This document shows, piece after piece, positions 11,971 to 63,632 of a DNA stretch of 64,000 bases. This stretch comes from Bdellovibrionales bacterium (GTDB lineage: Bacteria; Pseudomonadota; Alphaproteobacteria; UBA9219). Within the stretch, counting starts at the first letter, position 1. Each line of letters begins with the position of its first letter. Location of the stretch: assembly GCA_040275305.1 (NCBI GenBank), contig JBEOJY010000033.1:17955-81954 (forward strand), in the 5' to 3' direction. Made by a program: the position numbers and the translations under genes. The notes below the pieces were generated by a model. That model ran no database searches, was not told where the DNA came from, and worked only from the letters and a program-made list of their open reading frames with translations.

Positions 11971-12054
11971 AGAGCCCGCTCATGATCTCGCTGCGCTCCG
12001 GTTCTCGAAAAACGTTGAAAATCCTGCGTCGCAGCGAGATCATGAACGGGATCT
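11971..12054. repeat. Palindromic REP/MITE-like element, family D, copy 1
   Basis: Has 21-bp terminal inverted repeats CCCGCTCATGATCTCGCTGCG / CGCAGCGAGATCATGAACGGG. The core CTGCGCTCCGGTTCTCGAAAAACGTTGAAAATCCTG is shared with copy 2 at 15542-15687. Confidence 0.6.
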
Positions 12055-12139
12055 AAGGGGCTTGTGAATTTGGCATGGGATGTGCATTGCGTGAGTGTCT
12101 CTAAGTCGAGACGCTAGAAATCCTTTGTGGAATTCCGCG

Positions 12140-15542: not shown

Positions 15543-15687
15543 GAGCCTGTTCATGATCTCTAACTGCAGCTTTGGCTTTTCAACGTTTTCTGCGCTTCCG
15601 GCGCTCACGTATGTCAAATACGCTGCGCTCCGGTTCTCGAAAAACGTTGAAAATCCTGTGCCGCAGCGAGATCATGAACAGGCTCTA
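15542..15687. repeat. Palindromic REP/MITE-like element, family D, copy 2, with a roughly 60-bp internal insertion
   Basis: Has the same terminal inverted repeats and core as 11971-12054. It lies immediately after the flgH stop. Confidence 0.6.
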
Positions 15688-15701
15688 AATGATTTTCCTC
15701 G

Positions 15702-16259: not shown

Positions 16260-16343
16260 TGTAAGCCTGTGTTCTGGTTACTTGCGGGGTGATGTGTAAC
16301 TGCCAAGTTTCGTTGGAAGCGTAAAGACGAAGGTTGAAAACAG

Positions 16344-16502
16344 CGCCGTCATTGCGAGCCCCCTCTTGGGGGCGACCTGTCCGCCATAGTTGCGTAGCAA
16401 CGACGGCGGAAGCAATCCAGAGTCGATAGGACTGTCCCTAAGCTATTCTGGATTGCCACGTCGTCGCCAGCCTTAAGGCGGGCAACTCCTCGCAATGACG
16501 GT
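16344..16502. repeat. MITE-like palindromic element, family A (GTCATTGCGAGGAG termini), copy 1
   Basis: The termini are GCCGTCATTGCGAG...CTCCTCGCAATGACGG, with internal inverted repeats ATCCAGAGTCGATAG...GCCACG. Copies 25549-25665, 28794-28913, 30672-30797 and 42804-42943 share this architecture. Confidence 0.65.
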
Positions 16503-16600
16503 CTATTTTTTTTGGCGTTGGCTTGACTCTCTTGAAGTAGGGCTTAGGGGTTACGAAGATATTATAGAATTATGCATGTTTCCGGTTTTATGCGCAATAA

Positions 16601-18353: not shown

Positions 18354-20279
18354 ATGCTAGTTGCTTTAAGAGAAAGCTGTGCGGGTCTTGGGGCTTCGCT
18401 TGCAAAGATCTTTCACCCTCCTTTCAGGGATCTTTGGCTTGTCGTTCTTCTTTATGTTGTCTGGTGCCATCTTGTTTATCCCCATGCGCCGATCTTGCGG
18501 GGCGAGTTGCCTGATACGGACGATTATACCTATGTTAATCAGGTTCTTGACTGGCTTAAGGGGCAGGGGTGGCACGACAATGTTCAGCATCGCCTGAACC
18601 CACCACAAGGCACGCCGATTCATTTCTCACGCATCGCCCAGCTGCCTATGGCTGGGCTGGTTTCGTTGCTTGAATTTTGTGGTTTTGGCCCGAAAGGGGC
18701 AGCTACGATTATGGCGCTTATCTATCCGGCGTTTCTCTTCGCCGGATTTTGCGCGGCGATGCGGTGGTTGGCACGATGTTTCGTTCCGAACAGATGGTCG
18801 GGGGCAAGCGCTTATATCGCGCTTTTCGCTACGGCGACTTTGTTCATGTTTCAGCCGGGGCATATCGATCACCATGGCCTAAACATTCTTCTTATCACGC
18901 TTTCCCTTGGATGCGCGGCGCGGATGATTCGCGATCCCGCGCGCAGCGTTTGGGGCTTTGGCGCGGGGGCGTTTCTTGCGTTGTCTTTGACGATCGCTTT
19001 GGAGGTATTGCCGTGGCTTTTGCTTATTTCTGGATGGGTTGGTTTGGCTGCGTTAGCGCGAGGCCCGCTGGCTGCGCGGCAAGGACTGGCCTTTGGCGTC
19101 GCTCTTCATTTCGGCAGTCTTGTGGGGCTTTTGCTTACACGCGCGCCTCACGCTCTTGGGACGCTTGATGCTCTTAGCTATTCGATGACCTATGTGTTGT
19201 TGACTGGCGGCATAGCTTTTACGCTTGTTGTGATTGCTCTTGCGTGGACGGTCAAATTTCCGCGCTCTGTCGTGTGGTTAATCGGCGTGGTTGTTCCCGT
19301 GTCGTTTGGAACGCTGTTTCTTCACCGCTTTCCGGAGCTGCTCGTGGGGCCATATGGCGGCATGGATCCAGCTTTGTCGCAGATCATACTTGGCGTTATC
19401 AACGAAGCGCAGCCCCTCAAATCGTCGCAGGCGACATGGCTCGATGTTTCGCGAAATAGTTCCGGAGCGCTTATCGCGCTTGTTGCCTTGGGCGTTTTTT
19501 TGTGGCGCGACAAGGATGCGCAGGCGCGTTGGCGATGGGCGCTTCTTGCGCTCATCTTGGTTGGGGCGATGGGGCTGAGCATTTTTTACCAGAAACGGTA
19601 TATGGCCGCGATGGGCATGGCTTCGATCGTGCCGCTTTTGGCTTTGCTGCAGCGCGGATGGGGGCGTCTTTCGGCGTGGAGGGTTGACGATTCCAGGCAA
19701 GCGAGGACGAAGGTTTTATGCGAGCTTGGATTGCTCTTGCTGGTTGGACCGCTGCCTTCCGTGATTTATCCTGCGGTGTTGGATGGGCGCAAGTTCAATA
19801 CGGACATGCTGCTGTTCCCGGCCATGAAGGGCAGTTATTCAGATCGTTGTGGCATGCACAGGCTGGAGAATGTCTTGCGCGATCCCTTGCTTCTAGGTGG
19901 CGAGCCTAAGCTGATCATGAACACGCTGGGGGACGGTCCGGAGCTTCTGTTCCGAACGCAGCACAAAGTTTTGTCGGCTCCTTATCACATGAATGTAGAA
20001 GGTAATATTGACGCTACACGATTTTTTTCCACACCATATCCGGAAGAGGCGCGCGACATCGCGATGCGGCGCGGGGTGGATATCGTCGTGCTATGCCGAT
20101 ATTTTCCTGAAATGTATATGCGCGTATCGATGGCCAAAGGCCCCGCTGTCGAAGGGAATAATAAGGACTTCGCGGCGCATTTCATTATGTTGCTTGTGAC
20201 AGGAAAACACCCGGACTGGCTAAAGCCTGTGATAGTTCCGGGGCTAAACAACTTCGTGATTTATAAGGTCGTTAAGTAG
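18354..20279 (+). CDS. Large polytopic membrane protein, possibly a GT-C-fold glycosyltransferase
   Basis: The 641-aa protein has more than 10 hydrophobic helices. An acidic PDTDDYTYVNQV motif sits in the first loop, reminiscent of GT-C DxD/DD loops. There is no firm family assignment. Confidence 0.5.
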   Translation: MLVALRESCAGLGASLAKIFHPPFRDLWLVVLLYVVWCHLVYPHAPILRGELPDTDDYTYVNQVLDWLKGQGWHDNVQHRLNPPQGTPIHFSRIAQLPMAGLVSLLEFCGFGPKGAATIMALIYPAFLFAGFCAAMRWLARCFVPNRWSGASAYIALFATATLFMFQPGHIDHHGLNILLITLSLGCAARMIRDPARSVWGFGAGAFLALSLTIALEVLPWLLLISGWVGLAALARGPLAARQGLAFGVALHFGSLVGLLLTRAPHALGTLDALSYSMTYVLLTGGIAFTLVVIALAWTVKFPRSVVWLIGVVVPVSFGTLFLHRFPELLVGPYGGMDPALSQIILGVINEAQPLKSSQATWLDVSRNSSGALIALVALGVFLWRDKDAQARWRWALLALILVGAMGLSIFYQKRYMAAMGMASIVPLLALLQRGWGRLSAWRVDDSRQARTKVLCELGLLLLVGPLPSVIYPAVLDGRKFNTDMLLFPAMKGSYSDRCGMHRLENVLRDPLLLGGEPKLIMNTLGDGPELLFRTQHKVLSAPYHMNVEGNIDATRFFSTPYPEEARDIAMRRGVDIVVLCRYFPEMYMRVSMAKGPAVEGNNKDFAAHFIMLLVTGKHPDWLKPVIVPGLNNFVIYKVVK

Positions 20280-20304: not shown

Positions 20305-20499
20305 TGCTGCTAGCAGTCTGCTGAAAAACATTTTTGGAGAAGGTCATGCTGAAAGATAAAGAACATGGGATGCCCGCCTTTATCGCGGGCATGACGCCTG
20401 TTTTTATTGATAAATGTTCCTCAACTCGCGATGTCACACCCGCCGTGTCCCATTTGGTTTTTGTATCTTCCAGATGGGTTTTTCAGCAGACTGCTAGTG
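20305..20499. repeat. Inverted-repeat element (22-bp arms GCTGCTAGCAGTCTGCTGAAAAAC) enclosing a family-B-type hairpin
   Basis: The arms at 20305-20328 and 20477-20499 are reverse complements. The centre contains GGGATGCCCGCCTTTATCGCGGGCATGACGC. Confidence 0.5.
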
Positions 20500-24862: not shown

Positions 24863-24936
24863 TCATACGCTCCTAACCGCAAAAATTGTTGTAACTTCTA
24901 AGCCCGTTTCGAAAATCAGGAGGACTTTTTTTAGTA

Positions 24937-24988
24937 AGGACGGCTTGATTCCCTCCCCCTTGCGGGGAGGGAATCAAGCCGTCCTTAT
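24937..24988. repeat. Perfect 24-bp-stem hairpin, family E: GGACGGCTTGATTCCCTCCCCCTTGCGGGGAGGGAATCAAGCCGTCC
   Basis: The inverted repeat is read directly from the sequence. The same CCCTCCCCGCAAGGGGAGGGAATC motif forms the 160-bp palindrome at 63469-63632. Confidence 0.55.
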
Positions 24989-25214
24989 CGCAAAAAATCT
25001 CTCCAACCTTGGGAGTTATAAATGGTCTTGATATCGGACACACGCGAAGCAATTTAAAGTCCGAGGCTTTGTCTTGATCGTCGAAAAAACAAGCAGGCCA
25101 CTTTATGGGTATAAGCCTCTGGCATCAATAGCCGTCATTATCGTAAGGCGAACTTGCTGTTTTCAACAACAAATGACCAAACATTAACAGAAATATCCCA
25201 AAATATGTGTTGAC

Positions 25215-25440
25215 GCAATAATCCCATTTATGATAAATGTATCCCACTTCTTGAGATTGAAAAATCCTAAGGAGTGTCGGCAAGGCCGACGGTCCCATGG
25301 TCCGCGCGGTAAGTGGGGGAAAACCGGAAAGCCTTAAAGGCGGGTAGGCCACCCTAAGCGGGGGCCGGGGCAGACAGGGAACCGGACCGTGATGGCGGAG
25401 AGCTCTCCAGATTAAAGGACAAAAGGCAGAGATTAGATGG
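25215..25440 (+). ncRNA. Candidate small structured RNA with its own sigma70-like promoter (unclassified)
   Basis: TTGACG, a 17-nt spacer and ATAAAT lie at 25213-25241. A roughly 170-nt GC-rich segment follows in AT-rich context, with long-range complementary runs such as GGAGAGCTCTCC and AGGCCGACGG/CCGACGGTCC. No ORF longer than 20 codons is present. Confidence 0.3.
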
Positions 25441-25548
25441 TGGACGGGAGCATAAATGAGTAGGAGAAGATTAAGAATGAAATAATCGTAACTCCCAAGC
25501 AGAACATTGAATGGACGAGGGTCAATGCTGAAGGAAGGGGCGTCATCG

Positions 25549-25665
25549 CGAGGAGCCTTCTTCAGGCGACGTGGCGATCCAGAATCGCAAAAACAGCCCT
25601 TGACGACTCTGGATTGCGCATCGTTTCCCGCTTTTAGCGGAAAACTCCTCGCAATGACAGCCCTT
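25549..25665. repeat. MITE-like element, family A, copy 2
   Basis: GAAGGAAGGGGCGTCATCGCGAGGAG...CTCCTCGCAATGACAGCCCTTCCTTC. Confidence 0.65.
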
Positions 25666-25721
25666 CCTTCACAATCTTTCTTCATCTCGTTATGCCTTGG
25701 CTTGGCAGTTACAAAAAATCT

Positions 25722-28734: not shown

Positions 28735-28793
28735 GAGAGGATGTGCCTCCTAAGCCAAAGCATTACTGGATGAAGAGAGATTGTGAAGGAAGG

Positions 28794-28913
28794 GCTGTCA
28801 TTGCGAGGAGATCCCCGCTGAAAGCGGGGATCGACGCGGCAATCCAGAGTCGATAGAATCGCCTTTGCGACTCTGGATCGCCACGTCGCCTTCGGCTTCT
28901 CGCGATGACGGCC
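28794..28913. repeat. MITE-like element, family A, copy 3
   Basis: GGCTGTCATTGCGAGGAG...CTCGCGATGACGGCCC. It lies between aguA and aguB. Confidence 0.65.
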
Positions 28914-28981
28914 CTTACTCTTCAGTATTAACACCCGATTATTCTATGTCCTGCTTGGTAGTTACGATTGGAGTGCGCAGC

Positions 28982-29842
28982 ATGAGAAATGTTACGGTGG
29001 CGGCTTTGCAGTGCAGTTATAGTCGGGATACGCAAGCCAATTTTGCGAAGACGGAAATGCTTGCGCGCGAAGCGGCAAAGGACGGAGCGCAAATTATCCT
29101 GCCGTCAGAGCTGTTTCAGAACATCTATTTTTGCACGACGCAGGATTCGCGCTGGTTTGCGGAGGCCTATCCCGTCGCAGAGCATCCTTGCGTCAGGCAT
29201 TTCCAGCCGATCGCAAAAGAGCTTGGCGTTGCGCTGCCTATTTCGATTTTCGAGCGCGACGGGGTGCATCATTACAACAGCGTCGTTGTGATTGACGCAG
29301 ATGGGGCGCTGTTAGGCGTTTATCGTAAAACGCACATTCCAGACGGGCCGGGGTATCAGGAGAAGTTTTATTTCAGGCCGGGCGATACGGGGTACAAGGT
29401 TTGGAAAACCCGCTTTGCCACAATCGGCGTTGGGATTTGCTGGGATCAATGGTTTCCAGAATGCGCACGCGCCATGGCGCTGAAAGGGGCCGAGATCTTA
29501 TTTTATCCTACCGCTATTGGTTCGGAGCCACATGATCCTGCGCTTGACACATCCTTGCCGTGGCAGAGAGCCATGGTTGGGCATGCAGTGTGCAATGTCG
29601 TTCCTGTGGTCGCATCCAACAGGGTCGGGACAGAGGAGGGGCTAGGCGCGCCGCAGACCTATTACGGGCGCTCGTTTATCGCCAATTCTCGTGGCGATTT
29701 GGTCGCAAGCATGGGCAGGGAGCAAGAAGGCTATCTTAAGGCGACGTTTGATCTTGATGATATCGACAGGCAGCGCCGCGCGGAATGGGGTTTTTTCCGC
29801 GACAGGCGGGAGGAGTTCGACGCGATGCCGACAGCTTCTTGA
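28982..29842 (+). CDS. aguB: N-carbamoylputrescine amidohydrolase (CN-hydrolase/nitrilase superfamily)
   Basis: MRNVTVAALQCSYS..., the ...GVGICWDQWFPE catalytic Cys region and the EWGFFRDRR C-terminus are present. A GGAGTG ribosome-binding site precedes the ATG at 28982. Confidence 0.85.
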   Translation: MRNVTVAALQCSYSRDTQANFAKTEMLAREAAKDGAQIILPSELFQNIYFCTTQDSRWFAEAYPVAEHPCVRHFQPIAKELGVALPISIFERDGVHHYNSVVVIDADGALLGVYRKTHIPDGPGYQEKFYFRPGDTGYKVWKTRFATIGVGICWDQWFPECARAMALKGAEILFYPTAIGSEPHDPALDTSLPWQRAMVGHAVCNVVPVVASNRVGTEEGLGAPQTYYGRSFIANSRGDLVASMGREQEGYLKATFDLDDIDRQRRAEWGFFRDRREEFDAMPTAS

Positions 29843-29927
29843 TTGGCGTAGCTGATTTGGGGACAGACGTATTCCGGTTGTGCTACTGCCCCTTGCCCGC
29901 CGCGAAGCAATATGCGAGGAATGACGC

Positions 29928-30614
29928 ATGTCAGACAACATGTTCTCACAACAGCCGTTCTCGCACAGCAATCCTTTCGCTTTCGGAGGCGTGCAGCGCC
30001 GGGGATTGATGATGGTGTTGTCATCCCCTTCCGGCGCTGGCAAAACCACGATTTCGCGCCGGATGTTGGAGTCGGACTCTGAGCTGACATTGTCAATCTC
30101 GGTGACGACACGCCCGCCACGCCCCAACGAAGTCGACGGACGCGATTATCATTTTATTGATACGACAGAATTCAACCTGATGCTGAACCGCGACCAGCTT
30201 CTTGAGCACGCGAAGTATCTTACAAATTACTACGGAACTCCGCGCCTACCCGTGGAACAGGCGTTGGCTTCCGGCAAGGACATTCTGTTCGATATCGAAT
30301 GGCAAGGCACTCAGCAGTTGGCTGAAAAGGTTCGCGCCGATCTTGTCAGCGTTTTTATTCTTCCCCCCACGTGGAAAGACTTGGAAAAGCGGCTTTATAC
30401 GCGCGCGCAGGACGATCCGTCGGAGATTAACCGCCGCATGGCCAAAGCTGCCGACGAAATGAGCCATTGGGCGGAGTACGACTACGTCATCATTAACCGC
30501 GACTTGGACGAATCGGTGCAAGCCGCGCGCGCTATCCTTCAAAGCGAACGCCTTAAGCGCAACCGTCAGGTAGGGCTTGCGGAATTCGTCAACGGCCTCA
30601 AGCAGCGGCAGTAA
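29928..30614 (+). CDS. gmk: Guanylate kinase
   Basis: Has the P-loop SSPSGAGKTT and Gmk-family sequence. A GAGGA Shine-Dalgarno lies upstream. Confidence 0.85.
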   Translation: MSDNMFSQQPFSHSNPFAFGGVQRRGLMMVLSSPSGAGKTTISRRMLESDSELTLSISVTTRPPRPNEVDGRDYHFIDTTEFNLMLNRDQLLEHAKYLTNYYGTPRLPVEQALASGKDILFDIEWQGTQQLAEKVRADLVSVFILPPTWKDLEKRLYTRAQDDPSEINRRMAKAADEMSHWAEYDYVIINRDLDESVQAARAILQSERLKRNRQVGLAEFVNGLKQRQ

Positions 30615-30671
30615 TCATATCCGGAGAAACAGGAATACTCCGTAGGATTGGAAACCCGAAAAGCAACAAGG

Positions 30672-30797
30672 GCCGTCATCGCGAGGAGCCTTCTTCAGGC
30701 GACGACGCGATCCAGAGCCACAGAGGCAATTCTATCGACTCTGGATCGCCTAAGTCGTCTCCCGCTTTGCAAGCGGGAAACTCCTCGCGATGACGCC
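30672..30797. repeat. MITE-like element, family A, copy 4
   Basis: GGCCGTCATCGCGAGGAG...CTCCTCGCGATGACGCCC. Confidence 0.65.
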
Positions 30798-30883
30798 CTT
30801 TCCGCAAGGATTGTCTTTCATGAACCATAAGAAGCGCTTTAAGGGCTAGTGATTTTCGGCTTTCCAAGCATACGGAGGATAAC

Positions 30884-31273
30884 ATGACTGACATTGATCT
30901 GCAGGCTAAAGTTAGGGAGGCGCTCGACTCTACCAACGGCAACCGCCATGACGCGCAGAAATTGCTGATCGCATGGGCCGTCAGGGATCATCAGATGCTG
31001 CTCAACATGACTAAACAACATCTAAAGGCCATCGCTACCGCATTAATCGAATGCGCCGAAAGACCTCCCGTTCCTGCAAATACAAGTCAGCAAGCGGATT
31101 CCAAACTATCGCAGAAAGCGCTCGTCGGAATTCTAGCCGACGACTCCAACGATCACCTCGTTCAAGATAAACGACGTCGCGCAAATCTTCCGCCGCCGAA
31201 GACAACGGAGCGCCAAGCTTCCGCGATGCGGCAACTTGCGGAGGCATATGCTAGGAAACGTGACGAGAATTAG
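30884..31273 (+). CDS. Hypothetical protein (129 aa), with no recognised domain
   Basis: Uninterrupted ORF. It is convergent with the ORF at 31270-32100, and the two stop codons overlap (TTAG). Confidence 0.4.
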   Translation: MTDIDLQAKVREALDSTNGNRHDAQKLLIAWAVRDHQMLLNMTKQHLKAIATALIECAERPPVPANTSQQADSKLSQKALVGILADDSNDHLVQDKRRRANLPPPKTTERQASAMRQLAEAYARKRDEN

Positions 31274-32100: not shown

Positions 32101-32293
32101 AGGAATATCCTTTCTGTTAGGTCAATTATTTCTTTTGCGGCCAGATAATATCCTATTTTTGCATGGCGCAAAGAAGAAAGAGAACTATATTTGTCTTATT
32201 TATCTAACAGTCCTCTGAATAACACTTTTTGGGGTGGTTATGCTTATATACTTCTAACGGTTCGAGAGTTGGCAAAAAGCCCCCGATAGCGCA

Positions 32294-32473
32294 GCGTCAC
32301 ACCCGCGCAGGCGGGTGTCCACCACTTTTCGCTAGGCGAGGTTTCAACTCGCCGCCGTCACACCCGCGCAGGCGGGTGTCCACCTCATGTTCTCTATGCA
32401 AGCGATTCATTCGCATGATTTTTGCTTGTTCTCAGCATTTGGAGATGGACACCCGCCTGCGCGGGTGTGACGC
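32294..32473. repeat. MITE-like element, family B variant (GTCACACCCGCGCAGGCGGGTGTCCA hairpins, left arm tandemly duplicated)
   Basis: Two direct copies of GTCACACCCGCGCAGGCGGGTGTCCAC lie at 32296 and 32358. One inverted copy, TGGACACCCGCCTGCGCGGGTGTGAC, lies at 32446. Confidence 0.6.
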
Positions 32474-32555
32474 TTGTTTTTGCCGCGACATTTTCCCAAC
32501 TCTTCACGTGCGATGAGTATAGAAAAAAAGAAAACAGGATGCGTTGGGTCGCGTG

Positions 32556-36957: not shown

Positions 36958-37137
36958 CATTGACATTGCAGGAAAAACAAGCCACACGCGTCATTCCGGC
37001 GAAAGCTGGAAACCAGCTTGCGAGCGGCAGCGAGCGGAACAGAACGGATTTACGGCCTACGATTGTGAGCGTGATGGAGAGTCTTTCGCGCCGCAGACGC
37101 GGCGCTGCTGGATTCCGGCTTTCGCCGGAATGACGCT
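36958..37137. repeat. MITE-like element, family C (GTCATTCCGGCGAAAGC...GCTTTCGCCGGAATGAC)
   Basis: The terminal inverted repeats are read from the sequence. The left-flank leader TTGACATTGCAGGAAAAACAAGCC is shared with the family B copy at 61478. Confidence 0.6.
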
Positions 37138-38666: not shown

Positions 38667-40430
38667 ATGAACGAACACGATAAAAACGAACTCTCCGAAA
38701 TTTTGTTGGCCTCCGGAGACGCCGGTTACGAGTGGGACTTGGCGGTCGACCGAATCACGTGGTTCGGCGCGTGGGATAAAATATTTGGCACAAACTGCCT
38801 TCCGCCACATGACTCGGAGAAATTGTATAATATCATATTTACTGATGACAGGCCGCTTGTCTTCGGTAGCGAGGAGCTTACTCTCGATCGCCACTATAGG
38901 TTACTGCTTGCCAACGGCTCGCTTGTCTGGGTCCATGAACGCGGAACAGTCTTGCGCGAAAACGACCAAGCCGTCATACAGCGCGGCGTTTTGCGCCTTG
39001 AAGACAAGCGTCCGCAAGAACGCATCGCTTATGCGGAAATGCAAGGGCGCGACGTTCTTACAGGATGCTACAACCGCGCGCATATGCTTAGTCAAATTGC
39101 CAAGGCGACTGAGACGGCCAAGATGTCGTGCAGAACGGCAAGTTATTTTGTAGTCGGCGTCGATAAGATGTCATTCGTCAACGAGGCCGCAGGCATGGAA
39201 GTCGGCGATGCCTTGTTGCGCGGCGTTGCCGAGCGACTGTCCCAGATTATTCCGGGCCGCGCGATGTTGGGGCGCGTTGGAGGCGACATGTTCGGAGTTC
39301 TCCTGCCGGAACCGCTGGGTTCGGACATGGAGCGCATGGCCGAGCGCGTTCTACACAGTTTCCGCGATCAGCCAGTCGTCACGAGCCAGACTCCGTTGCA
39401 CATAACCGTTTCCATTGGCGGCGTGCGCATGCCTATGATCGCTAAGAACGCGACGGAGACGATGATATTCGCAGAGCAAGCGCTCCACGACGCGCATCAG
39501 CGCGGACGCAATCTCTTTACCGAATATACGGACTCGCCGGAACGCGCCAATCAGAACCGCAAGATTTTAGAGCTTGGTGAGCGTATTCAGCATGCCTTTA
39601 AACACAACGGATTTCGTCTGGCCTTCCAACCGGTTATTGAAACTGCGACTGGGCAGGTGCTGTTTTATGAAACTCTGGTTCGTATGCTTGGCAGCGACGG
39701 CGTTCTCGTAGCCGCAGGGCAGTTTGTTCCAGCCATTGAGCAGATGGGGCTGGCGTTTGAGCTGGATCGTCTTGTGCTCGACATGTCAATCAAAGAACTT
39801 GAACTTACGCAGAACCTATATCTTGCGGTTAACGTATCGGGATTAACGGCCGCGCAAGCCGATTGGCCTGACCACGTGCAAAAGGTGCTTGGCGGGAAAC
39901 CTGATGTCGCTTCGCGACTCATCATCGAAATCACTGAGACCGCTGCAATCGTCGATGTCACTGAAACGCGCCGCTTTGTCGATTCGCTTCGCGAGCTAGG
40001 CGGGCGGGTCGCTCTTGACGATTTTGGCGCAGGTTTTACCTCGATCCGCCATTTGCGTTCGCTGTCGCTGTCAATCATGAAGATCGATAAAGATCTTCTG
40101 CACAACATTCTCACGAATGGCGAACAGCAGCACCTTGTGCGCATGTTGATTGAGTTGGCGCGCGGCCTTGGCCTTAAGACCGTGGCGGAAGGCGTGGAAA
40201 CGGAAGAAGTCGCTGATTGGCTGCGCCGAGAAAACGTCGACATGATGCAGGGATACTATTTCGGCAAGCCTTCGCTGGAACGCCCATGGCTGGAGTTGGA
40301 AGGCGCGCAGGCTCCGTTTGACAAGTTGAGCAAGATGTTAAGCGATACCAAGTCAGGAATGCTGAACGCGGTCAAAGCTTTTTCACCCTTAGAATCGTTG
40401 GCAGGTTCCCAAAATCCATCGGGTCATTAG
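38667..40430 (+). CDS. GGDEF/EAL domain signalling protein with an N-terminal PAS-like region. Both motifs are degenerate.
   Basis: The GGDEF position reads GGDMF. The EAL position reads ETLVR. DDFGAGFTS and the EGVETEE downstream motifs are present. Confidence 0.75.
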   Translation: MNEHDKNELSEILLASGDAGYEWDLAVDRITWFGAWDKIFGTNCLPPHDSEKLYNIIFTDDRPLVFGSEELTLDRHYRLLLANGSLVWVHERGTVLRENDQAVIQRGVLRLEDKRPQERIAYAEMQGRDVLTGCYNRAHMLSQIAKATETAKMSCRTASYFVVGVDKMSFVNEAAGMEVGDALLRGVAERLSQIIPGRAMLGRVGGDMFGVLLPEPLGSDMERMAERVLHSFRDQPVVTSQTPLHITVSIGGVRMPMIAKNATETMIFAEQALHDAHQRGRNLFTEYTDSPERANQNRKILELGERIQHAFKHNGFRLAFQPVIETATGQVLFYETLVRMLGSDGVLVAAGQFVPAIEQMGLAFELDRLVLDMSIKELELTQNLYLAVNVSGLTAAQADWPDHVQKVLGGKPDVASRLIIEITETAAIVDVTETRRFVDSLRELGGRVALDDFGAGFTSIRHLRSLSLSIMKIDKDLLHNILTNGEQQHLVRMLIELARGLGLKTVAEGVETEEVADWLRRENVDMMQGYYFGKPSLERPWLELEGAQAPFDKLSKMLSDTKSGMLNAVKAFSPLESLAGSQNPSGH

Positions 40431-40456
40431 ATCCTCACTTTTCTCTGTCAACTTGT

Positions 40457-42364
40457 CTATGTCCCTCTGCGAAACGTGTCATGAATTTTTTGCGCAAGGG
40501 CGGGGCTGATGCCCTGCACGCGAGCGAGGTCTTCAACGCTGGCTTCGCGGGCGGCTTTGGCTGAGCCGAAATGATGGAGCAGGGCGCGTTTGCGTGCCGC
40601 GCCGATGCCGGGGACTTCCTCCAGCCCCGAATCCCCGATGGCTTTGGTTCGCTTGGCGCGATGCGTGCCTATGGCGAAGCGGTGCGATTCGTCGCGCAAG
40701 CGTTGAAGGTAATATAGAACGGGGTCTTCGTGCGGAAGGCTGAAGGGTTCGCGACCTTCCATGAAGAATCTTTCGTTGCCTGCGTTGCGGTCAGGGCCTT
40801 TGGCGATGCCAACAATTTTTATGTCGTCGCCCAAACCCATTTCGTTCAGCACTTCGTGGACTTTTGAGATTTGCCCCGCGCCGCCGTCGATAAGCAATAG
40901 GTCTGGCCACATGGCGGACTGTTTCTGCGGGTCTTCCTCGATCAGGCGGCGAAAGCGCCGCGTCATGACTTCGCGCATCATGGCGAAATCGTCTCCGGCG
41001 GCTTGCGCGTCGCGGATGTTGAATTTGCGGTAGGTCTTGCGCAGGAATCCTTCGGGACCGGCGGCGACCATCACGCCGACGGCGTGGCTGCCAGATAAAT
41101 GCGAATTGTCGTAGATTTCTATGCGTTTCGGAGGCTCCTCCATGCCGAATAACTCGGCGAGCTTTGCCAGAATGCGGACTTGCTCGGTGGCGTTGGCCAA
41201 TTTGCGGGCAAGGGCTTCTTTGGCGTTACGAGACGCCAGCGCGATGAGGCGGACCTTGTCGCCTGCTTGCGGCACTGTCAGCGTGACCTTGCGGTCGGCT
41301 CGTTGCGACAGGGCTTGCGCGAGAATCTCGCCATCGGATGGTTCGTGGCTCAGCAGCAAGAGGGGGGGCGGGATTTTGTTTTCATAGAATTGCGCGAGGA
41401 AGGCGCTCAAGATATCTGCAGAGCTATCCTCGATGTCATGTTTCGGGAAAAACGTTCTGGCTCCGTAATTGCGGTCGTCGCGGAAGAAGAAGACTTGAAT
41501 GGCGGTTTGTCCGCCGCTTTGTTCAAGCGCAAAGATATCGGCGTCGCCCAGATTGTTTACGTTAACATCCTGACGCGACTGGATGGAGGTCAGTGCGCGG
41601 ATGCGGTCGCGCAATCTAGCGGCGGTTTCATAGTCAAGCGCGTCGCTGGCGGCTTGCATCAGTTCCGAGAGCTTGTCTTGGATGGAGCGGCTCTTGCCAC
41701 TTAAGAAGGAGACGGCGTCTTGCGCTTGCGCGGCGTAGGTTTCTGGCGTGACGTAGCCAACGCAGGGCGCTGTGCAGCGCTTAATATGATACTGCAAGCA
41801 GGGGCGCTTGCGGTTGGCGTAGACGGCGTCGGAGCAGGTGCGCAACATAAAGCCGCGCTGCAGGACGGCAAGCGTTTCGTTGACGGCGCTGCCGGAGGCG
41901 AAGGGGCCAAAATAGCGGCCTTTACGGGTTTTGGCTCCGCGATGTTTCAGAAGCTGGGGGGCTTCATGATCCTGCGTAATCAACAGGTAGGGGTAGCTTT
42001 TGTCGTCGCGCAACAGGATGTTGAAGGGCGGAAGGTGTTTTTGGATGAAGTTCGCTTCGAGCAACAGGGCCTCGGCTTCAGTGCGGGTGACGACGATTTC
42101 GACGCTGCGGATTTGCGCGACCATACGCTGGAGCCGGATCGGTAGGCGCGCGCGCTGGGTATAGGAATTGACACGGCGGGTCAGGTCTTTCGCTTTTCCG
42201 ACATAAAGCACGATGCCTTTGCCGTCGATCATGCGATACACGCCGGGCTGGGGCGGGATGGTCTTAAGTTGCTCCTTCAAAACACTCGCGCCGATGTCGA
42301 AACCCGTCTGGCCTTTGGCCAGAGAGCTAATGTTATCAACGAGATCCGGCTCACGCTCGGCCAT
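40457..42364 (-). CDS. uvrC: Excinuclease ABC subunit C
   Basis: Has a GIY-YIG N-terminus (PGVYRMIDGKGIVLYVGKAKDLTRRVNSY), a UvrC core and C-terminal HhH motifs. Confidence 0.9.
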   Translation of the reverse strand: MAEREPDLVDNISSLAKGQTGFDIGASVLKEQLKTIPPQPGVYRMIDGKGIVLYVGKAKDLTRRVNSYTQRARLPIRLQRMVAQIRSVEIVVTRTEAEALLLEANFIQKHLPPFNILLRDDKSYPYLLITQDHEAPQLLKHRGAKTRKGRYFGPFASGSAVNETLAVLQRGFMLRTCSDAVYANRKRPCLQYHIKRCTAPCVGYVTPETYAAQAQDAVSFLSGKSRSIQDKLSELMQAASDALDYETAARLRDRIRALTSIQSRQDVNVNNLGDADIFALEQSGGQTAIQVFFFRDDRNYGARTFFPKHDIEDSSADILSAFLAQFYENKIPPPLLLLSHEPSDGEILAQALSQRADRKVTLTVPQAGDKVRLIALASRNAKEALARKLANATEQVRILAKLAELFGMEEPPKRIEIYDNSHLSGSHAVGVMVAAGPEGFLRKTYRKFNIRDAQAAGDDFAMMREVMTRRFRRLIEEDPQKQSAMWPDLLLIDGGAGQISKVHEVLNEMGLGDDIKIVGIAKGPDRNAGNERFFMEGREPFSLPHEDPVLYYLQRLRDESHRFAIGTHRAKRTKAIGDSGLEEVPGIGAARKRALLHHFGSAKAAREASVEDLARVQGISPALAQKIHDTFRRGT

Positions 42365-42803
42365 GGTTTTGTTATCCCCTAAAGCTGTGGATAAGACTGT
42401 TTATAAGTCGTCCGCGCGTACCTGTTTAACACGGAAAGACGAAGGTTTATGCGCTTTGCTTAAAATGTGGGCAGTCTCTCTATCTGTCTGTATTCTAATA
42501 ATATCTTTGTAAATAAAGCATGAAGTTTTGTTAACTTGCTGTTTAACCTGTTGTTACCGGAGCCGATGTTTCACGCTGTGCACAAATATCGTGGAGACGC
42601 ATAACGGATTGCTGCTGTCAAGCGGGGTTTAATGAATTTTTAAGAGGTGTGGCAGGGCTGCGGGGGGGGGGTATATTCTGGTGAGTTGTTGCCTGATTAT
42701 ATATTTAACATTTGTTGCATTATTTGTAACTCTCAAGCTCTACTCAGGGGCATACAAACAATACTATAGTCAAACCAGATAAGTTCCTTAAATGCGCAAT
42801 GAA

Positions 42804-42943
42804 CGCCGTCATTGCGAGGAGCCTCCTTCAGGCGACGACCTGTCCGCCATAGTTGCGTAGCAACGACGGCGGAAGCAATCCAGAATCCCACAGGACATCG
42901 CCACCGACTCTGGATCGCTTCGCATTCGCTCGCGATGACGGCG
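42804..42943. repeat. MITE-like element, family A, copy 5
   Basis: It shares the internal segment GACCTGTCCGCCATAGTTGCGTAGCAACGACGGCGGAAGCAATCCAGA with copy 1. Confidence 0.65.
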
Positions 42944-43026
42944 CTTTCCGCATTGTTTGTCTACGTAACCTCAAAGTTAAGCTTGGGAGTTACCATTATT
43001 TTTGTAATTTATTATGTGATTTATAT

Positions 43027-43100
43027 CCACCAGCCAAGCCATTGAAATAGCTGGTGGGTGCGACAGGGATTGAACCTGTGACCCCTACCATGTCAAGGTA
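43027..43100. repeat. attL: direct-repeat copy of the tRNA-Val 3' 49 nt plus about 25 bp of downstream sequence
   Basis: Positions 43052-43100 are identical to 58057-58105 (49/49). The flanking segments 43027-43051 and 58032-58056 match at about 21/25. Confidence 0.75.
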
Positions 43101-43277
43101 ATAACTCGTAATTTTCTTTCGCTTCCTTTTGCTTTCCTAACCTTACTAATATGTTATATATCAATGTGATTTCTTATTTCCGGTAAGGTAGATGTCTTGC
43201 CGTAAATCACCGTAATTTCCCTTTATCTGCTTCCTATGTGCTTCCTGTAGGGGCGCTACCTTCAGAAAGGAATCATA

Positions 43278-44525
43278 ATGGTAAGGCTCACCAAGACGCA
43301 TGTCGAGGGATTGAAACCGGGCGAACCGGACTATTTTGTTTGGGATGAGACTTTGCCAGGCTTTGGCGTTCGCGTGTGGCCTAGCGGCAAGAAGACCTAC
43401 ATCGCGCAATATCGGGCGGTAGGGCGAACGAGGCGGATCAAGATAGGCAATCACGGCGTTTTGACGGTCGAGGAAGCCCGCAAACAGGCAAAAGGCATAC
43501 TGGGCGACGTCGCGCGAGGCGAAGACCCGCAAGAGGATCGCCTGACTCGCCGCAAGGCGATGACAGTTTCGGAGCTTTGCGAAGCCTACCTCTATGCTGC
43601 GGAGCGCGGTCTTATCATGGGCAAGGGAGGCCGCGCGAAACGTGAATCGACTTTGGCGATTGACAAGGGGAGGATTGAACGGCACATCAAGCCCCTGCTG
43701 GGCACCAAGCTTGTGCGCGAACTCACACCTTCGGATATAGGACGTTTTATTCGAGACGTTGCGTCTGGCAAGACGGCGGGGGTAGTTAAAACTGACCTGG
43801 TGCGCGGGCAGGCTATCGTTAAAGGTGGAGCTGGGACGGCTTCACGTTGCGCGGCGTTTCTGGGAGGCATGTTGAGTTTTGCCGTCGCGGAAGGCGTGAT
43901 CGCGCATAATCCGGCGCGAGGCGTGAAGCGTCCGGCCTATGGTAAGCGAACAAGGCGCTTAAACGCTGAAGAATACTGTCGCCTTGGCGAAGCCCTGCGC
44001 GTGCTGGAACGCGAAGGGGAAAGCTTGCAAGCAATTAAAGCGGCGTGGCTTCTCGCCCTGACAGGGTGTCGCCTGAACGAAATCGTCGAGTTGAAATGGG
44101 CGGAGGTAGATGACGTCGGGCGTTGCCTTCGGCTTGAGGATTCAAAAGAAGGCGCGTCTGTGCGGCCTTTGGGGGCGCATGCCATGGAAATCCTGCGCAG
44201 CGTCGGGCGCAAAGACGACGCTTTGTTTGTGCTCGAAGCCGTGCGCGGAAAAGGCTCGTTCGGGGGCATGCCTCGCGCGTGGCGGCGGTTTGCGAAGCGC
44301 GCCGGGTTTGAGGATGTAACGCCCCACACGTTGCGCCACAGCTTCGCGAGCGTTTCGGGCGATCTTGGCTTTGCGGACAGCACCATCGCCGCATTGCTGG
44401 GACATTCAACCGGAAGTATGACTTCGCGTTATGTGCACAAGCTTGATGCCGTGTTAATCGCCGCCGCTGATAAGGTTGCTGAGGCTGTTTGGGGGATGAT
44501 GGAGGATGGGAAGAATAATGGTTAA
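43278..44525 (+). CDS. int: Tyrosine-type site-specific integrase (P4-like, DUF4102 arm-binding N-terminus)
   Basis: Has LKPGEPDYFVWDETLPGFGVRVWPSGKKTYIAQYR (DUF4102) and a C-terminal HTLRHSFAS...LLGHSTGSMTSRYVH catalytic domain. Confidence 0.85.
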   Translation: MVRLTKTHVEGLKPGEPDYFVWDETLPGFGVRVWPSGKKTYIAQYRAVGRTRRIKIGNHGVLTVEEARKQAKGILGDVARGEDPQEDRLTRRKAMTVSELCEAYLYAAERGLIMGKGGRAKRESTLAIDKGRIERHIKPLLGTKLVRELTPSDIGRFIRDVASGKTAGVVKTDLVRGQAIVKGGAGTASRCAAFLGGMLSFAVAEGVIAHNPARGVKRPAYGKRTRRLNAEEYCRLGEALRVLEREGESLQAIKAAWLLALTGCRLNEIVELKWAEVDDVGRCLRLEDSKEGASVRPLGAHAMEILRSVGRKDDALFVLEAVRGKGSFGGMPRAWRRFAKRAGFEDVTPHTLRHSFASVSGDLGFADSTIAALLGHSTGSMTSRYVHKLDAVLIAAADKVAEAVWGMMEDGKNNG

Positions 44526-44702
44526 TGCTTTTACGCAACATTTTGACAAATTACCATTATTTTTCAATGCCTCACGATGGAAATCAACAATTGAAATTTA
44601 GGACAAAATGTCCTACATTCAGCATACCTAGTTCCCGCACGCCGAATCGGCCCCGGATGGGGTTCTTGGCAGCAATCGCTAGCCTAGGCTGCGGGAATGC
44701 CT

Positions 44703-45311
44703 CTATCTAAATCTCCATAAGTTTGCGATCTTCGGTGCTATCATGCCGTGCCAGCGTGAGGCGTCTTTTTTACCGGAGTAGGTGCGAGCTATTGCACCGG
44801 TTACCATATCGGCAAGCTGTATCAGGTGGTCATTACGAGAGGAAAGAAAAGTAATTTTCTTAATCTGGCCGTCTGGTATCATCCGCCTAATATATTGTGC
44901 CAGTTGCCTTTTGAACTCCCTGTCTCCGCTTTCGTCAATTTTAATGTGCGCCTTGTCTAGCATATGAGTGTGCTGTGAAATAAGTTGCCGGACGAAATAG
45001 TTGTAAAAACTGTCATTGCTTGTCCTTAAATGCTGGCTGTAGATTTCAGACTTGCGGACAGCAAGCGCGTATATTGAATAGTCAAACGGCGCAACGGCGG
45101 TGAAAAAGGCGTCCCTGATTTCGGCGCGGCTGTTGCTAAATTTGAATTCAGGGTAGATTTTCCTTTCCGCTTGAAGCTTCTTAATCGCCGCACTGCACTT
45201 TTCGGCTTCATCAAATGCCTTGAACACAATCATGCAGACGACAAAGAACTGCGAAGACCCTTTTTGGATCTTGAAACCAGAATCGCCGCTTTCGTCTATG
45301 AGTATAAGCAT
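44703..45311 (-). CDS. DUF3800 family protein
   Basis: Has the MLILIDESGDSGF N-terminus and the ...QLADMVTGAI motif characteristic of DUF3800. Confidence 0.55.
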   Translation of the reverse strand: MLILIDESGDSGFKIQKGSSQFFVVCMIVFKAFDEAEKCSAAIKKLQAERKIYPEFKFSNSRAEIRDAFFTAVAPFDYSIYALAVRKSEIYSQHLRTSNDSFYNYFVRQLISQHTHMLDKAHIKIDESGDREFKRQLAQYIRRMIPDGQIKKITFLSSRNDHLIQLADMVTGAIARTYSGKKDASRWHGMIAPKIANLWRFR

Positions 45312-45322
45312 GGCCCTTCTTC

Positions 45323-45625
45323 ATGGTAAGGATGATTTTGCGGAACTTCTCTATTAATATGCGTGTGTATATCAAATACAAAGCGTTCACCACACATAGT
45401 TCCGTTTTTGTAATAATGCACTCTTTGGTGGGAGATCGCAGCGCGTATGCTTTGTGTGGAGCGACGATGGAAACAGCCTTGCGTTTAGGAAGGTTCTTCG
45501 GCATGTCGCCGGAATTCTGGATGAACGCGCAGGCGCATTATGACCTGTTGCTGGCGGAAGCGAAACTGAGCCGCTCCATTGCCCGTGAGGTAACACCTTA
45601 TGAGGGGGATTGCGTCCGGGGGTAA
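45323..45625 (+). pseudogene. HigA-like antitoxin remnant (C-terminal half of an XRE-type HTH)
   Basis: METALRLGRFFGMSPEFWMNAQAHYDLLLAE matches the HigA C-terminal consensus (ALRLaRyFGtSpEFWlNLQ). No N-terminal helix region and no higB partner are present. Confidence 0.35.
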
Positions 45626-45844
45626 AAGCCGATGATGGCAGCCATGAGCAAGAAAGCGTTTGAAAGCATTGCCGCGAGACTGCGCGAAGCCGTTGCACAC
45701 GCGCAAGAGGATGATCGCGCGGAGGCGAGGTTTTTTAGTGCATGAATATTGATGAGCATTGCTGGACAGGCTATGCTAATCTGTGATCGAAACCGTAGAT
45801 AATACGCTATCGTCTGAGTTTGTATGTTGGAAAAGGTCGCAAAA

Positions 45845-46303
45845 ATGAAACAACTTGTTCTTTGTTTGATTGTCACTTTATGTCTGTGCGGATGCGTTAC
45901 AACCAAGGATCGGATTAATCAGCTTGATAGTCAAATTCGTCAGCTGGAGGCGGAGCAACGTGCTAAGTTGCACAAGGAAATAGAATTGTATCGCAATGAA
46001 AAGAATTCAACATGTACATCAAAAAATCTTACGTACGCTGGTCTAAATATACACGCTTTTGAGCTTTCTAATGATAGAATAGATTCTACTAGTGATTATG
46101 ATTCAATCATAAAGAATGCCAATATGGCCCTTGAAGCGATCTTTGAACTTGCGGATTTAGCAAAGGAACGCAGGTGTTATAAAGATGCAGATAAACTATA
46201 CCGCCATGTCATTGAAAGATATGTTGGAGTTTACTATTCTGGCTTTCGCGACAGAGCAAGAATAGGCATTGATGACATAAGGGGATTACAAAAAATAAAA
46301 TAA
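45845..46303 (+). CDS. Hypothetical lipoprotein with a coiled-coil segment
   Basis: Has the lipobox LCLCGC and a heptad-like QLDSQIRQLEAEQRAKLHKEIELYRNEK. Confidence 0.45.
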   Translation: MKQLVLCLIVTLCLCGCVTTKDRINQLDSQIRQLEAEQRAKLHKEIELYRNEKNSTCTSKNLTYAGLNIHAFELSNDRIDSTSDYDSIIKNANMALEAIFELADLAKERRCYKDADKLYRHVIERYVGVYYSGFRDRARIGIDDIRGLQKIK

Positions 46304-46309
46304 AAAGCG

Positions 46310-47170: not shown

Positions 47171-47519
47171 GTCTGTATCCGAGTTGGCCATCATAACGAT
47201 CCGAACAAGAACCTTCCTCAATGAGCCCCAAGTCAACAAGCTTTGCAATCGTCTTCTTTGACGAACTTACGGCGTTTTTTGCTGGCGGCTCGAAAAGGGA
47301 TGTCGAATTCGACATTCTCTGGAGAACTTTCCTCTCACGTTCGTTCAAGCGTGGAAGGACGGGCCAGATGGACGATTCCGCAGCAGTCTGGTGAACCATG
47401 AAAAAAAATCCTTGAGCGTGAGGCATTGACACGGCCCTGCGAATATGGTCTAGTAACCGTGTTGCTATCTCACGATATTTTTTGGGGATCTCCATGCGCT
47501 TCGATGTTTTTCCCACCAC
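47124..47519 (-). CDS. Hypothetical small protein, possibly a winged-helix regulator
   Basis: TIAKLVDLGLIEEGS...YRLTKLG resembles a wHTH recognition helix and wing. It overlaps neighbouring ORFs at both ends. Confidence 0.3.
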   Translation of the reverse strand: MVGKTSKRMEIPKKYREIATRLLDHIRRAVSMPHAQGFFFMVHQTAAESSIWPVLPRLNERERKVLQRMSNSTSLFEPPAKNAVSSSKKTIAKLVDLGLIEEGSCSDRYDGQLGYRLTKLGYSALAQPHSR

Positions 47520-48060: not shown

Positions 48061-48119
48061 GAAAAATACAAGCAAATTAGCGAACGCGACTAAAACTTCA
48101 GATACTTGGAGCCAATCGA

Positions 48120-48398: not shown

Positions 48399-48420
48399 CA
48401 CTAAAAGAGGAGCGTTTACA

Positions 48421-48624: not shown

Positions 48625-48652
48625 TTTCCACTAACATCTAAGGAGAAGCTCT

Positions 48653-51373: not shown

Positions 51374-51378
51374 CTCCT

Positions 51379-59829: not shown

Positions 59830-60088
59830 GGCTACGCCTCGTACTCTTATATGGCCTATAATATCATTTGAACTGTATACAAATATTTTCTAGTAACGGC
59901 AACATAAATCTTTATGTATGGCGTGGCGTCTTCATAATTATACTTTTAAATATTTTTAAATAGTATTCTGTAATAGTGTCTGTGCCATTTTGTATTCAAC
60001 GCTTGTTCTTGGCGCTTTATTGTCATCAAGCATACTATCATAAACTTCAACGCTTTGTTTCAGAACAAGATCCGTTCCTGCCGTGAGC

Positions 60089-60203
60089 GTCATGCCCGCG
60101 AAGGCGGGTATCCAGCTCCTATCCCAGATGTGCGCTCTTCACTTGCGTGTTTCTTCCTTGTTTTAACATCGGGAGATGGATGCCCGCCTTCGTGGGCATG
60201 ACG
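60089..60203. repeat. MITE-like element, family B, copy 1
   Basis: CGTCATGCCCGCGAAGGCGGGTATCCA...TGGATGCCCGCCTTCGTGGGCATGACGC. Confidence 0.65.
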
Positions 60204-60299
60204 CTTGCAGCTCATTTGGTCTGCAATATTAACGATATATTCCTTTGGGTAGTATAATTATCATGAATTATTGTGTGTTATCTGTCAAATGTTTCATGA

Positions 60300-61454: not shown

Positions 61455-61477
61455 GAATGCTACCCTACAGACAGATT

Positions 61478-61625
61478 CCTTGATATTGCAGGAAAAATAC
61501 GCCGCAAGCGTCATGCCCGCGAAGGCGGGCATCCATCCCCTGTCCCAGATGTGTGCGCTTGACTTGCGTGTATTTGCCTTGATTCAACGTCGGGAGATGG
61601 ATGCCCGCCTTCGCGGGCATGACGC
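61478..61625. repeat. MITE-like element, family B, copy 2, with the ATTGCAGGAAAAA leader
   Basis: GCGTCATGCCCGCGAAGGCGGGCATCCA...TGGATGCCCGCCTTCGCGGGCATGACGC. Confidence 0.65.
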
Positions 61626-61826
61626 TGGCGGCAAGACCGAATCTAGTTCTAACACAATGCGTTAAAGTGTAGGGTAGCGTGATCGTCATGAATCCCTTGC
61701 ATTATCGTTGCTTTGCTTATGGCATGTTCGCGCGCTTCTGACAACGCGCGTGACAAGATGGCCGATTCTCTGCGATATACACTTAATCCTGCTTGCGCAG
61801 GACTTGAATTTCTCGTTCGGGTTTGA

Positions 61827-63468: not shown

Positions 63469-63632
63469 AGCTTGATTCCCTCCCCCTTGCGGGGAGGGTT
63501 AGGGTGGGGGACCAGAAGACAGAAAGTAGGTATCAGAAACGCCCTTGCTGCAAAACTATGCCTTCTGATGCCTGTTCTCTGCTTGCTGAAGCTCCCCCAC
63601 CCTAACCCTCCCCGCAAGGGGGAGGGAATCAG
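63469..63632. repeat. Roughly 160-bp palindromic element, family E
   Basis: The left arm GCTTGATTCCCTCCCCCTTGCGGGGAGGGTTAGGGTGGGGGA and the right arm TCCCCCACCCTAACCCTCCCCGCAAGGGGGAGGGAATCAGATC are reverse complements. Confidence 0.55.

Follow-up and report, generated by a model that had tools for sequence, protein, structure and literature searches.

The window, i.e., the whole 64,000-nt stretch of DNA analysed here, has a G+C content of 52.5% and holds at least 12 palindromic intergenic elements, a count far above chance. The 12 elements collected in Table 1 lie within about 72 kb of genome covered, and none was found in the first 16 kb of the window or in a 15-kb prophage-like island (43.1–58.0 kb). 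The island, integrated at a tRNA, spans 43027-58131 between 74-nt direct repeats (43027-43100 and 58032-58105), which cover the 3' part of a tRNA gene on the minus strand (58060-58131). Another direct repeat of 68 nt, with 94% identical copies at 11989-12056 and 15621-15688, flanks the flagellar rod/FlgA block. Each of these copies holds the inverted repeat GATCTCGCTGCG...CGCAGCGAGATC, and they are unrelated to the CGTC elements described below.

Table 1. Palindromic elements of the window, in order of position, followed by the genes of the prophage-like island (z, fold of the single-stranded DNA)
Feature	Position	Strand	Shell	Core	z	Site
A1	16296..16554	.	composite; TIRs 16296-16308 and 16542-16554	CGTC-REP tag-outward dimer 16347-16500; 36-nt nested hairpin insertion in left arm, its core 16381-16409		between two minus-strand genes, 46 nt past PAP2 stop codon
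'Bc'	20310..20497	.	perfect 20-bp TIR shell CTAGCAGTCTGCTGAAAAAC	CGTC-1-like unit 20367-20395 (minus) and degenerate second unit		31 nt past stop codon of gene 18354-20279
D1	24891..25019	.	family A outer TIR (GTAACTTCTAAGC / ATAACTCCCAAGG)	other core: 23-bp-stem hairpin CCCTCCCC-CTTG-CGGGGAGGG		
A2	25488..25712	.	full-length, 225 bp; TIRs GTAACTCCCAAGC and GTAACTGCCAAGC	REP heterodimer 25541-25658	-6.4	begins 9 nt past YkuD stop codon
A3	28743..28965	.	full-length, inverted relative to A2	REP heterodimer 28796-28910		inside aguA-aguB spacer
A4	30674..30795	.	outer shell ~30633-30856, degenerate and uncertain	REP heterodimer	-8.2	
B3	32265..32503	.	13-bp inverted repeat AGAGTTGG(C/G)AAAA	CGTC-1 units 32295-32321 (+), 32356-32382 (+) and 32446-32472 (-); stem ACACCCGC	-9.8	
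C1	36939..37140	.	left shell module GCCACCCTACA...TTGACATTGCAGGAAAAA, common to B2	CGTC-1 dimer, stem ATTCCGGC; units near 36989 (+) and 37109-37134 (-)	-7.5	between convergent genes (Na/H exchanger, LpxD-like gene)
A5	42726..42993	.	composite; TIRs 42726-42738 and 42981-42993	REP dimer 42807-42940; 36-nt nested insertion in left arm as in A1		
B1	60037..60253 (about)	.	shell ends degenerate	CGTC-1 homodimer 60088-60114 (+) / 60177-60203 (-); 62-nt spacer	-10.5	46 nt past rnd stop codon
B2	61459..61678	.	11-bp TIR GCTACCCTACA	CGTC-1 homodimer 61509-61535 (+) / 61598-61624 (-)	-10.6	flanked by 12-bp direct repeat (61447-61458, 61682-61693) that includes rnd start codon
D2	63470..63631	.		inverted pair of the CCCTCCCC-CTTG-CGGGGAGGG hairpin, arms extended		
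Island: integrase	43278-44525					
Island: DUF3800 protein	44703-45311					adjoins DUF3800-IX RNA 44632-44701
Island: portal protein, protease-capsid fusion, large terminase						

Every copy that the first-pass annotation had listed was recovered at or around its place, and the copies were homologous to one another. The boundaries, on the other hand, had to be corrected, as the elements are larger than had been described, and one family, that of the CCCTCCCCCTTGCGGGGAGGG hairpin (D1 and D2), had been missed. The description of the repeats as related families of palindromic, intergenic, non-coding sequences was supported. The family A pattern GTCATYGCGAG-N90-120-CTCGCRATGAC gave 4 matches against 0.00 expected from shuffled sequence; the fifth family A copy, A1, exceeds the N90-120 length limit of the pattern and is hence outside these 4 matches. 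The family B 27-mer CGTCAYRCCCGCGMAGGCGGGYRTCCA gave 7 matches at ≤2 mismatches, again against 0.00 expected. A2, A3 (inverted) and A4 have about 80% mutual identity, and A1 aligns with A5 at 79% over 128 nt. The identity is 86–88% between B1 and B2 and 70–73% between B3 and these two copies, and C1 shares with B2 an 82-nt stretch, made up of the left shell module plus the first of the REP units. The folds of the elements as single-stranded DNA had z values from -4.0 to -10.6, and none of the shuffles equalled them. The text and supplements of papers were also searched for the family A sequence, and nothing relevant was obtained.

Inner CGTC-tagged REP units

Di Nocera, De Gregorio and Rocco (2013, PMC3733652) defined the superfamily of CGTC-tagged REPs, which is marked by an unpaired terminal tag (CGTC, or TGTC/CCTC), a stem of 8–9 bp starting with AT, a loop of 4–5 nt, the tail CCA and copy numbers from tens to thousands per genome. 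It consists of the families CGTC-1 to CGTC-4, which include dRS3 of Neisseria (CGTC-1) and RPE-4/RPE-6 of Rickettsia, and the CGTC-1 family is present in Micavibrio, a deep-branching alphaproteobacterium. The units are found mostly as 'HH' dimers, in which the tags are outside, with spacers of 20–100 nt, and they are intergenic and near the 3' ends of ORFs (PMC3733652).

The GTCAT...ATGAC hairpins of the window are CGTC-tagged REP units in tag-outward dimers. These hairpins had been thought to cap the elements, but they are internal units, and family A extends 45–80 bp further out. The tag is CGTC in all units of families B and C and either CGTC or TGTC in the arms of family A, and the tail is CCAG, CCAT or CCAC in all units. 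The units of B1, B2 and C1 fit CGTC-1 exactly, with an 8-bp stem and a 4-nt loop (e.g., CGTC-ATGCCCGC-GAAG-GCGGGCAT-CCA), and the units of B3 are CGTC-1 save that the stem starts with AC. The stems occur as the variants ATGCCCGC, ACACCCGC and ATTCCGGC, each with compensating changes on its two sides, and each element has a single variant in all of its units.

In family A, all ten arms read GTCATYGC...GCRATCCAGAR, and the Y and R positions covary in 10/10. Each arm has a covarying basal stem of 5–6 bp around a structured insert of 12–58 nt, which usually contains a hairpin of its own. Therefore, the tag, the start of the stem and the tail are kept in family A, whereas stem and loop depart in size from those of the four published families. 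Each family A dimer joins two different arm types and is thus a heterodimer. Because the REPs are paired tag-outward, the whole element folds into one long hairpin, and two inverted REPs within about 130 bp forming one hairpin were indeed obtained in the folds. Nine elements are tag-outward dimers, B3 with a third unit in addition. The 20.4-kb copy, listed as a 'core' in the first-pass annotation, is a degenerate pair with the tags facing inward. All of these copies are intergenic.

The elements are similar to the published CGTC REPs in the tag, the stem starting with AT, the GAAG, GCAG or GAAA loops, the CCA tail, the tag-outward pairing with spacers of 20–100 nt and the intergenic position near gene 3' ends. 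They differ in the stem and insert sizes of family A, in the AC of the B3 stem and in that the dimers lie in TIR-bounded shells with target duplications. The repeats are small non-coding mobile DNA elements and an informative but ordinary example of a known and widespread class of bacterial hairpin repeats, the CGTC-tagged REPs, and in this lineage, transposon-like shells wrap the REP dimers.

The BIMEs of E. coli and the NIMEs of Neisseria also combine REP units with other conserved modules in a make-up that is variable between copies. However, the REPs of the BIMEs are GTAG-tagged, and the NIMEs, in which clustered RS units lie between dRS3 repeats, have neither TIRs nor target duplications. 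The dRS3/NIME system of Neisseria, in which ATTCCC-N8-GGGAAT units flank RS modules in large clusters, was rejected as an assignment for the present elements; the closest unit is that of C1 (ATTCCGGC-GAAA-GCCGGAAT), and no RS clusters were seen. The Correia elements (CREE) of Neisseria are TIR-bounded intergenic MITEs of about 100–150 bp, which fold into hairpins and can affect neighbouring transcripts. In these respects they are similar to the elements of the window, but they have other TIRs, a TA duplication and no REP core.

Outer shells and the candidate transposase

The 13-bp TIR GTAACTCCCAAGC gave 10 matches in the window at ≤2 mismatches, against 1.07 expected, and 9 of the 10 are element ends, i.e., inverted pairs at A1, D1, A2 and A5 and the intact end of A3. 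The 8-mers outside the shell ends were identical at 8/8 positions for A5, 7/8 for A2, 6/8 for D1 and 5/8 for both A1 and A3. When AT-rich 8-mers of this window were compared at the same spacing, they agreed on average at 2.4 positions; agreement at 8/8 had a probability of about 1e-4, and agreement at ≥7 one of about 1.7e-3. The duplication of A5 (CATTATTT) is perfect and adjoins both ends of the element, and the two sides of A2 read AAATAATC and AAAAAATC. The presence of TIRs together with a target duplication of fixed length indicates a MITE moved by a DDE transposase. Family A is a true MITE with a REP dimer as its core, and the earlier term 'MITE-like' was right for this family, although the 5/8 duplication of A3 and the degenerate shell of A4 are weak points of this reading.

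Outside family A, the shells of B2, B3 and 'Bc' end in inverted repeats of 11, 13 and 20 bp, respectively. No target duplication was found at the flanks of the B3 and 'Bc' shells, and a right shell end of C1 was looked for and not found. The attC sites of integrons were also compared with the shell ends by eye and rejected, as their R''/R' consensus does not fit.

IS66-family inverted repeats start with GTAAGCG and the direct repeats are 8 bp (PMC11946415). ISDge4, an IS66-family member of the ISBst12 group, has the ends GTGACTACTCAGCA and GTAACTGCTCAGCA and an 8-bp direct repeat (PMC12898284). The putative link of family A to IS66 rests on the 13-bp TIR, since the A2 end GTAACTGCCAAGC is identical to the right end of this one published IS at 11/13 positions, and on the length of the duplication. 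The elements, which are 129–268 bp long and have no coding capacity, are similar to ISBst12-group MITEs with ISDge4 ends in the GTAAC start of the TIR, in this identity and in the 8-bp target duplication. They are different in that the interior is a REP dimer and not deleted IS sequence, and the cognate IS was not seen.

We consider it fairly probable that the family A copies are MITEs moved in trans by an IS66-type transposase encoded elsewhere, with the REP dimer as core. The elements are built of two layers. The inner layer is that of the CGTC-tagged REPs, paired tag-outward and folding as one hairpin. The outer layer is the shell, which in family A and D1 ends in the 13-bp TIR GTAACTNCCAAGC next to a duplicated 8-bp AT-rich target, and such ends are the signature of transposition by a DDE enzyme of the IS66 family (ISBst12 group). 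The IS66-type transposase, supplied from elsewhere in the genome, would move family A in trans, and the REP dimer would ride along as the core. Families B and C have similar REP dimers in other shells, such as that of B2 with its 11-bp TIR and 12-bp flanking repeat. The identity of the transposase is what we infer from these ends, and any host effect is likewise a matter of interpretation. Neither the window nor the 8 kb past its left end contains a transposase gene, of the IS66 family or other, and no autonomous IS with family A ends was found in the window, the fetched loci or the viral contigs.

The shells could also be targets and not vehicles, if REP dimers insert preferentially at the centre of pre-existing palindromes such as MITEs or other inverted repeats. 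Four different shells have CGTC dimers at their centre, D1 is a family A shell around a different core, and C1 combines the B2 shell module with a different REP type. In addition, CGTC-1 dimers of H. neapolitanus lie inside a 41-bp palindrome, and GTAG-15 dimers of Anabaena lie inside long palindromes (PMC3733652). However, no family A shell without a core was observed in the window. Moreover, A2 and A3, compared in reverse orientation, are 79% identical over 230 nt, reaching well past the GTCAT hairpins, and this homology over shell and core is as expected of a composite copied as one unit. We regard insertion into pre-existing palindromes as unlikely. A weak point of the MITE reading is that the modules between the TIR and the REPs are conserved only between A2 and A3, and A1 and A5 differ there; this agrees better with recombination into mosaics, or with dimers inserted independently into related shells, than with simple copying of one unit.

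The family A shell was also searched for in the viral contigs and the fetched loci, and there were no matches. Family-A-like dimers from other genomes numbered 54, none of them with a comparable shell. These results indicate that the composite form is specific to this lineage, and that the inner unit, since the same type of REP dimer occurs unshelled in other genomes, must also spread by another route.

A RAYT could provide such a route. In that case, the tag-outward dimer would itself be the mobile unit, copied as a single-stranded hairpin by a RAYT (REP-associated tyrosine transposase, HUH/Y1) that is encoded once in the genome, and the shells would be incidental. The architecture is REPIN-like, as a pair of inverted REPs around a short spacer forms one long hairpin, and the 54 unshelled dimers agree with this mechanism. 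Bertels and Rainey linked a Group 2 RAYT to the dRS3 REPIN of Neisseria, whose sequence ATTCCCGCGCAGGCGGGAATC is a CGTC-1 unit. The elements are similar to the REPINs mobilised by RAYTs (Bertels and Rainey 2011, 2022) in being non-coding doublets of inverted REPs that fold into one hairpin and form populations of diverged copies within the genome. A groundwater MAG (L064) encodes, furthermore, a Y1_Tnp protein, and a CGTC-1 unit lies 65 nt upstream of it. At this locus (L064:2588-3588), the protein has 303 aa and combines Y1_Tnp with a DnaA-C-like HTH; the upstream unit is a perfect CGTC-1 (CGTCATTCCCGCGAAAGCGGGAATCCAG), and two more lie within 1.7 kb.

With the exception of L064, however, neither the window nor the 1.4 Mb surrounding 176 REP-bearing stretches yielded a RAYT. 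Searches of the window and the REP loci by tblastn and phmmer with E. coli RayT gave nothing, and a profile of 44 RAYT sequences over the 1.4 Mb of REP loci gave L064 as its one match. A second protein search with E. coli RayT retrieved enteric relatives only. Di Nocera et al. likewise found no transposase linked to the CGTC REPs (PMC3733652). At 80 metagenome loci of Group 2 RAYT relatives, the hairpins flanking the gene were GTAG-tagged, and CGTC units occurred in 4 of the 80 as mere bystanders, only further out and beside GTAG pairs. Most of the E. coli RayT relatives at these loci (L175-L254) have inverted GTAG-tagged hairpins to either side, at a distance of no more than about 100 nt, and the stem sequence is specific to the locus.

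The present elements thus differ from the REPIN-RAYT system in that neither the window nor L258 yielded a RAYT, and in that the REPs flanking the sampled RAYTs are GTAG-tagged. They also differ in the TIRs and 8-bp duplications of family A, which are not expected of RAYT-type enzymes, as enzymes of the IS200/IS605 type make no target duplications. For inner units at large, a RAYT may be a route of spread, but nothing in these results speaks for it in this genome, and as the explanation of the present copies we consider it rather doubtful.

Empty sites, copying and neighbouring genes

The presence or absence of elements was compared with relatives, as the first-pass annotation had suggested, and was polymorphic at three sites, i.e., the aguA-aguB spacer, the gmk spacer and the rnd 5' end. 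Relatives of AguA had 74% and 71% identity. UvrC of the window is identical to a protein listed by NCBI for a 'Bdellovibrionales bacterium' MAG, and its next named relatives are Alphaproteobacteria MAGs. The aguA-aguB spacer is 247 nt in the window, of which A3 takes up 223 nt, as compared with 18 nt in L170 and 15 nt in L173. The start of AguB (MRNVTVAALQ) is conserved in the relatives, and the true aguB start is at 28982. The spacer from gmk to the next gene, which contains A4, is 269 nt in the window and 24 nt in the relative L256. At the 5' end of rnd (true start 61454), B2 lies between the ATG and a sequence orthologous to the rnd leader of L256, which has no element at this site, so that rnd is separated from its AAGGG ribosome-binding site. 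No copies of families A, B or C were found in L256 (19.7 kb, 89% UvrC identity), in L257 or in five loci of more distant relatives (L170-L174). The elements were therefore inserted after divergence from the nearest relatives.

Copying is indicated by three observations. A1 and A5 have the derived nested hairpin insertion of 36 nt in common, contigs assembled from short reads of the same organism are broken at both of these elements, and the prophage-like island is free of elements. The break within A5 is at 42768 (contig L255), and another short-read contig, L001, ends at 20491, within the right TIR of 'Bc'. The cores of B1 and B2 are 86% identical in the same orientation, but their shells are inverted relative to each other, which fits inversion of the spacer by recombination between perfect arms. 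The earlier proposal that the elements are hot-spots of recombination is borne out to the extent that recombination between arms is suggested by the inverted shells of B1 and B2 and by the A1/A5 mosaics.

Two larger differences in gene arrangement were also observed. The ornithine/DAP-decarboxylase-like gene and the YkuD gene are 859 nt apart in the window (24863-25721) and 3 nt apart in L170; the extra DNA consists of D1, A2 and about 470 nt of unassigned sequence with a promoter-like site (25166-25137, minus). In the region of 29.9–40.4 kb, the comparison with L256, L257 and L170 showed uvrC followed directly by gmk in two relatives and aguB followed by GGDEF/EAL in the third, and the order in the window fits one inversion between those junctions plus a further move of the PPDK gene. 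No repeat element was found at the inversion junctions uvrC/gmk and aguB/GGDEF (29842-29928 and 40430-40457), and therefore, we do not claim that the REPs caused the inversion.

The positions of the elements relative to genes could also mean that they are RNA elements selected by the host, i.e., terminators or 3' stabilisers that are kept for their function and are not mobile. Seven of the ten elements in the first-pass annotation follow a gene 3' end, several of them within 10–50 nt of the stop codon, and their stems show compensatory change. The pattern at gene 3' ends has also been published for the CGTC REPs (PMC3733652). On the other hand, the orthologous spacers of relatives have no elements, and family A has TIRs and target duplications. 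Rfam has no family at any of the element sites. A scan for hairpins with a U-tract gave terminator-like counts equal to the shuffled background, with marginal matches only in 'Bc' and one B2 arm. No consistent U-tract was present on the transcribed strand at the elements, and the T-run after A1 is on the non-transcribed side. The terminator role proposed earlier is thus unsupported. In addition, A3 splits the aguA-aguB operon, and B2, directly before the start codon, parts rnd from its ribosome-binding site; these are not terminator positions. Selection of the elements as host RNA signals is, in our view, very improbable.

In the reading as MITEs with REP-dimer cores, the elements, should they affect the host at all, probably do so incidentally, through a stable hairpin in the 3' or intercistronic part of a transcript that may protect transcript ends or alter coupling, and arm-to-arm recombination is likely a further side effect. 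Mechanical ORFs or ORF extensions through the elements (25125-25685, 28865-28981, 30676-30942, 32229-32516, 42812-43045 and 61455-61532) are almost certainly spurious. For the annotation of this genome, the elements explain these spurious ORFs as well as the split aguA-aguB operon, the displaced rnd leader and the breaks of the short-read contigs.

Related repeats in other genomes and phages

The strict pattern of the family A dimer was found in 47 IMG/VR contigs. The family B 27-mer was found in at least 120 stretches of representative genomes, none of them related to the window. The hosts among the matches listed include Alpha-, Beta-, Gamma- and Deltaproteobacteria, Campylobacterota, Chloroflexota/Dehalococcoidia, Planctomycetota, Armatimonadota and others. 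The 120 stretches listed (L049-L168) contain 238 CGTC-1-like units and 72 tag-outward pairs, and the exact 27-mer arm of B2 (CGTCATGCCCGCGAAGGCGGGCATCCA) occurs 44 times among them, in many phyla. Identical 27-mers across phyla are hard to square with purely vertical, lineage-specific REPIN populations. Clustering of the ORFs around the 120 CGTC-1 loci listed gave no recurrent neighbour gene.

A group of the IMG/VR contigs, namely L004, L010, L034, L038 and about 20 of L002-L048, has shared portal, capsid and adaptor genes. The contigs of this group contain CGTC REP units of the GTCATTGCGAG type in almost every intergenic gap, at densities reaching 2 heads per kb. The largest structural ORF of L004 and L034 (490–494 aa), which is probably the portal gene, has a REP pair within it. 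Phage genomes laden with REPs in this way could be a route of horizontal spread.

A more general proposal would be that CGTC REPs spread as cores of MITE shells moved by DDE transposases, here of the IS66 type, and perhaps also between lineages on phages. We put this forward as a decidedly speculative idea, less probable than not by a wide distance. If it were true, the spread by shells and phages would explain the occurrence of identical 27-mers across many phyla.

These results assign the anonymous repeats of an uncultured 'Bdellovibrionales bacterium', whose nearest named relatives are Alphaproteobacteria MAGs, to a published class of repeats, with corrected boundaries. The CGTC REPs are without an accepted transposase, and TIR-bounded shells with 8-bp duplications offer a concrete and testable route for their spread.
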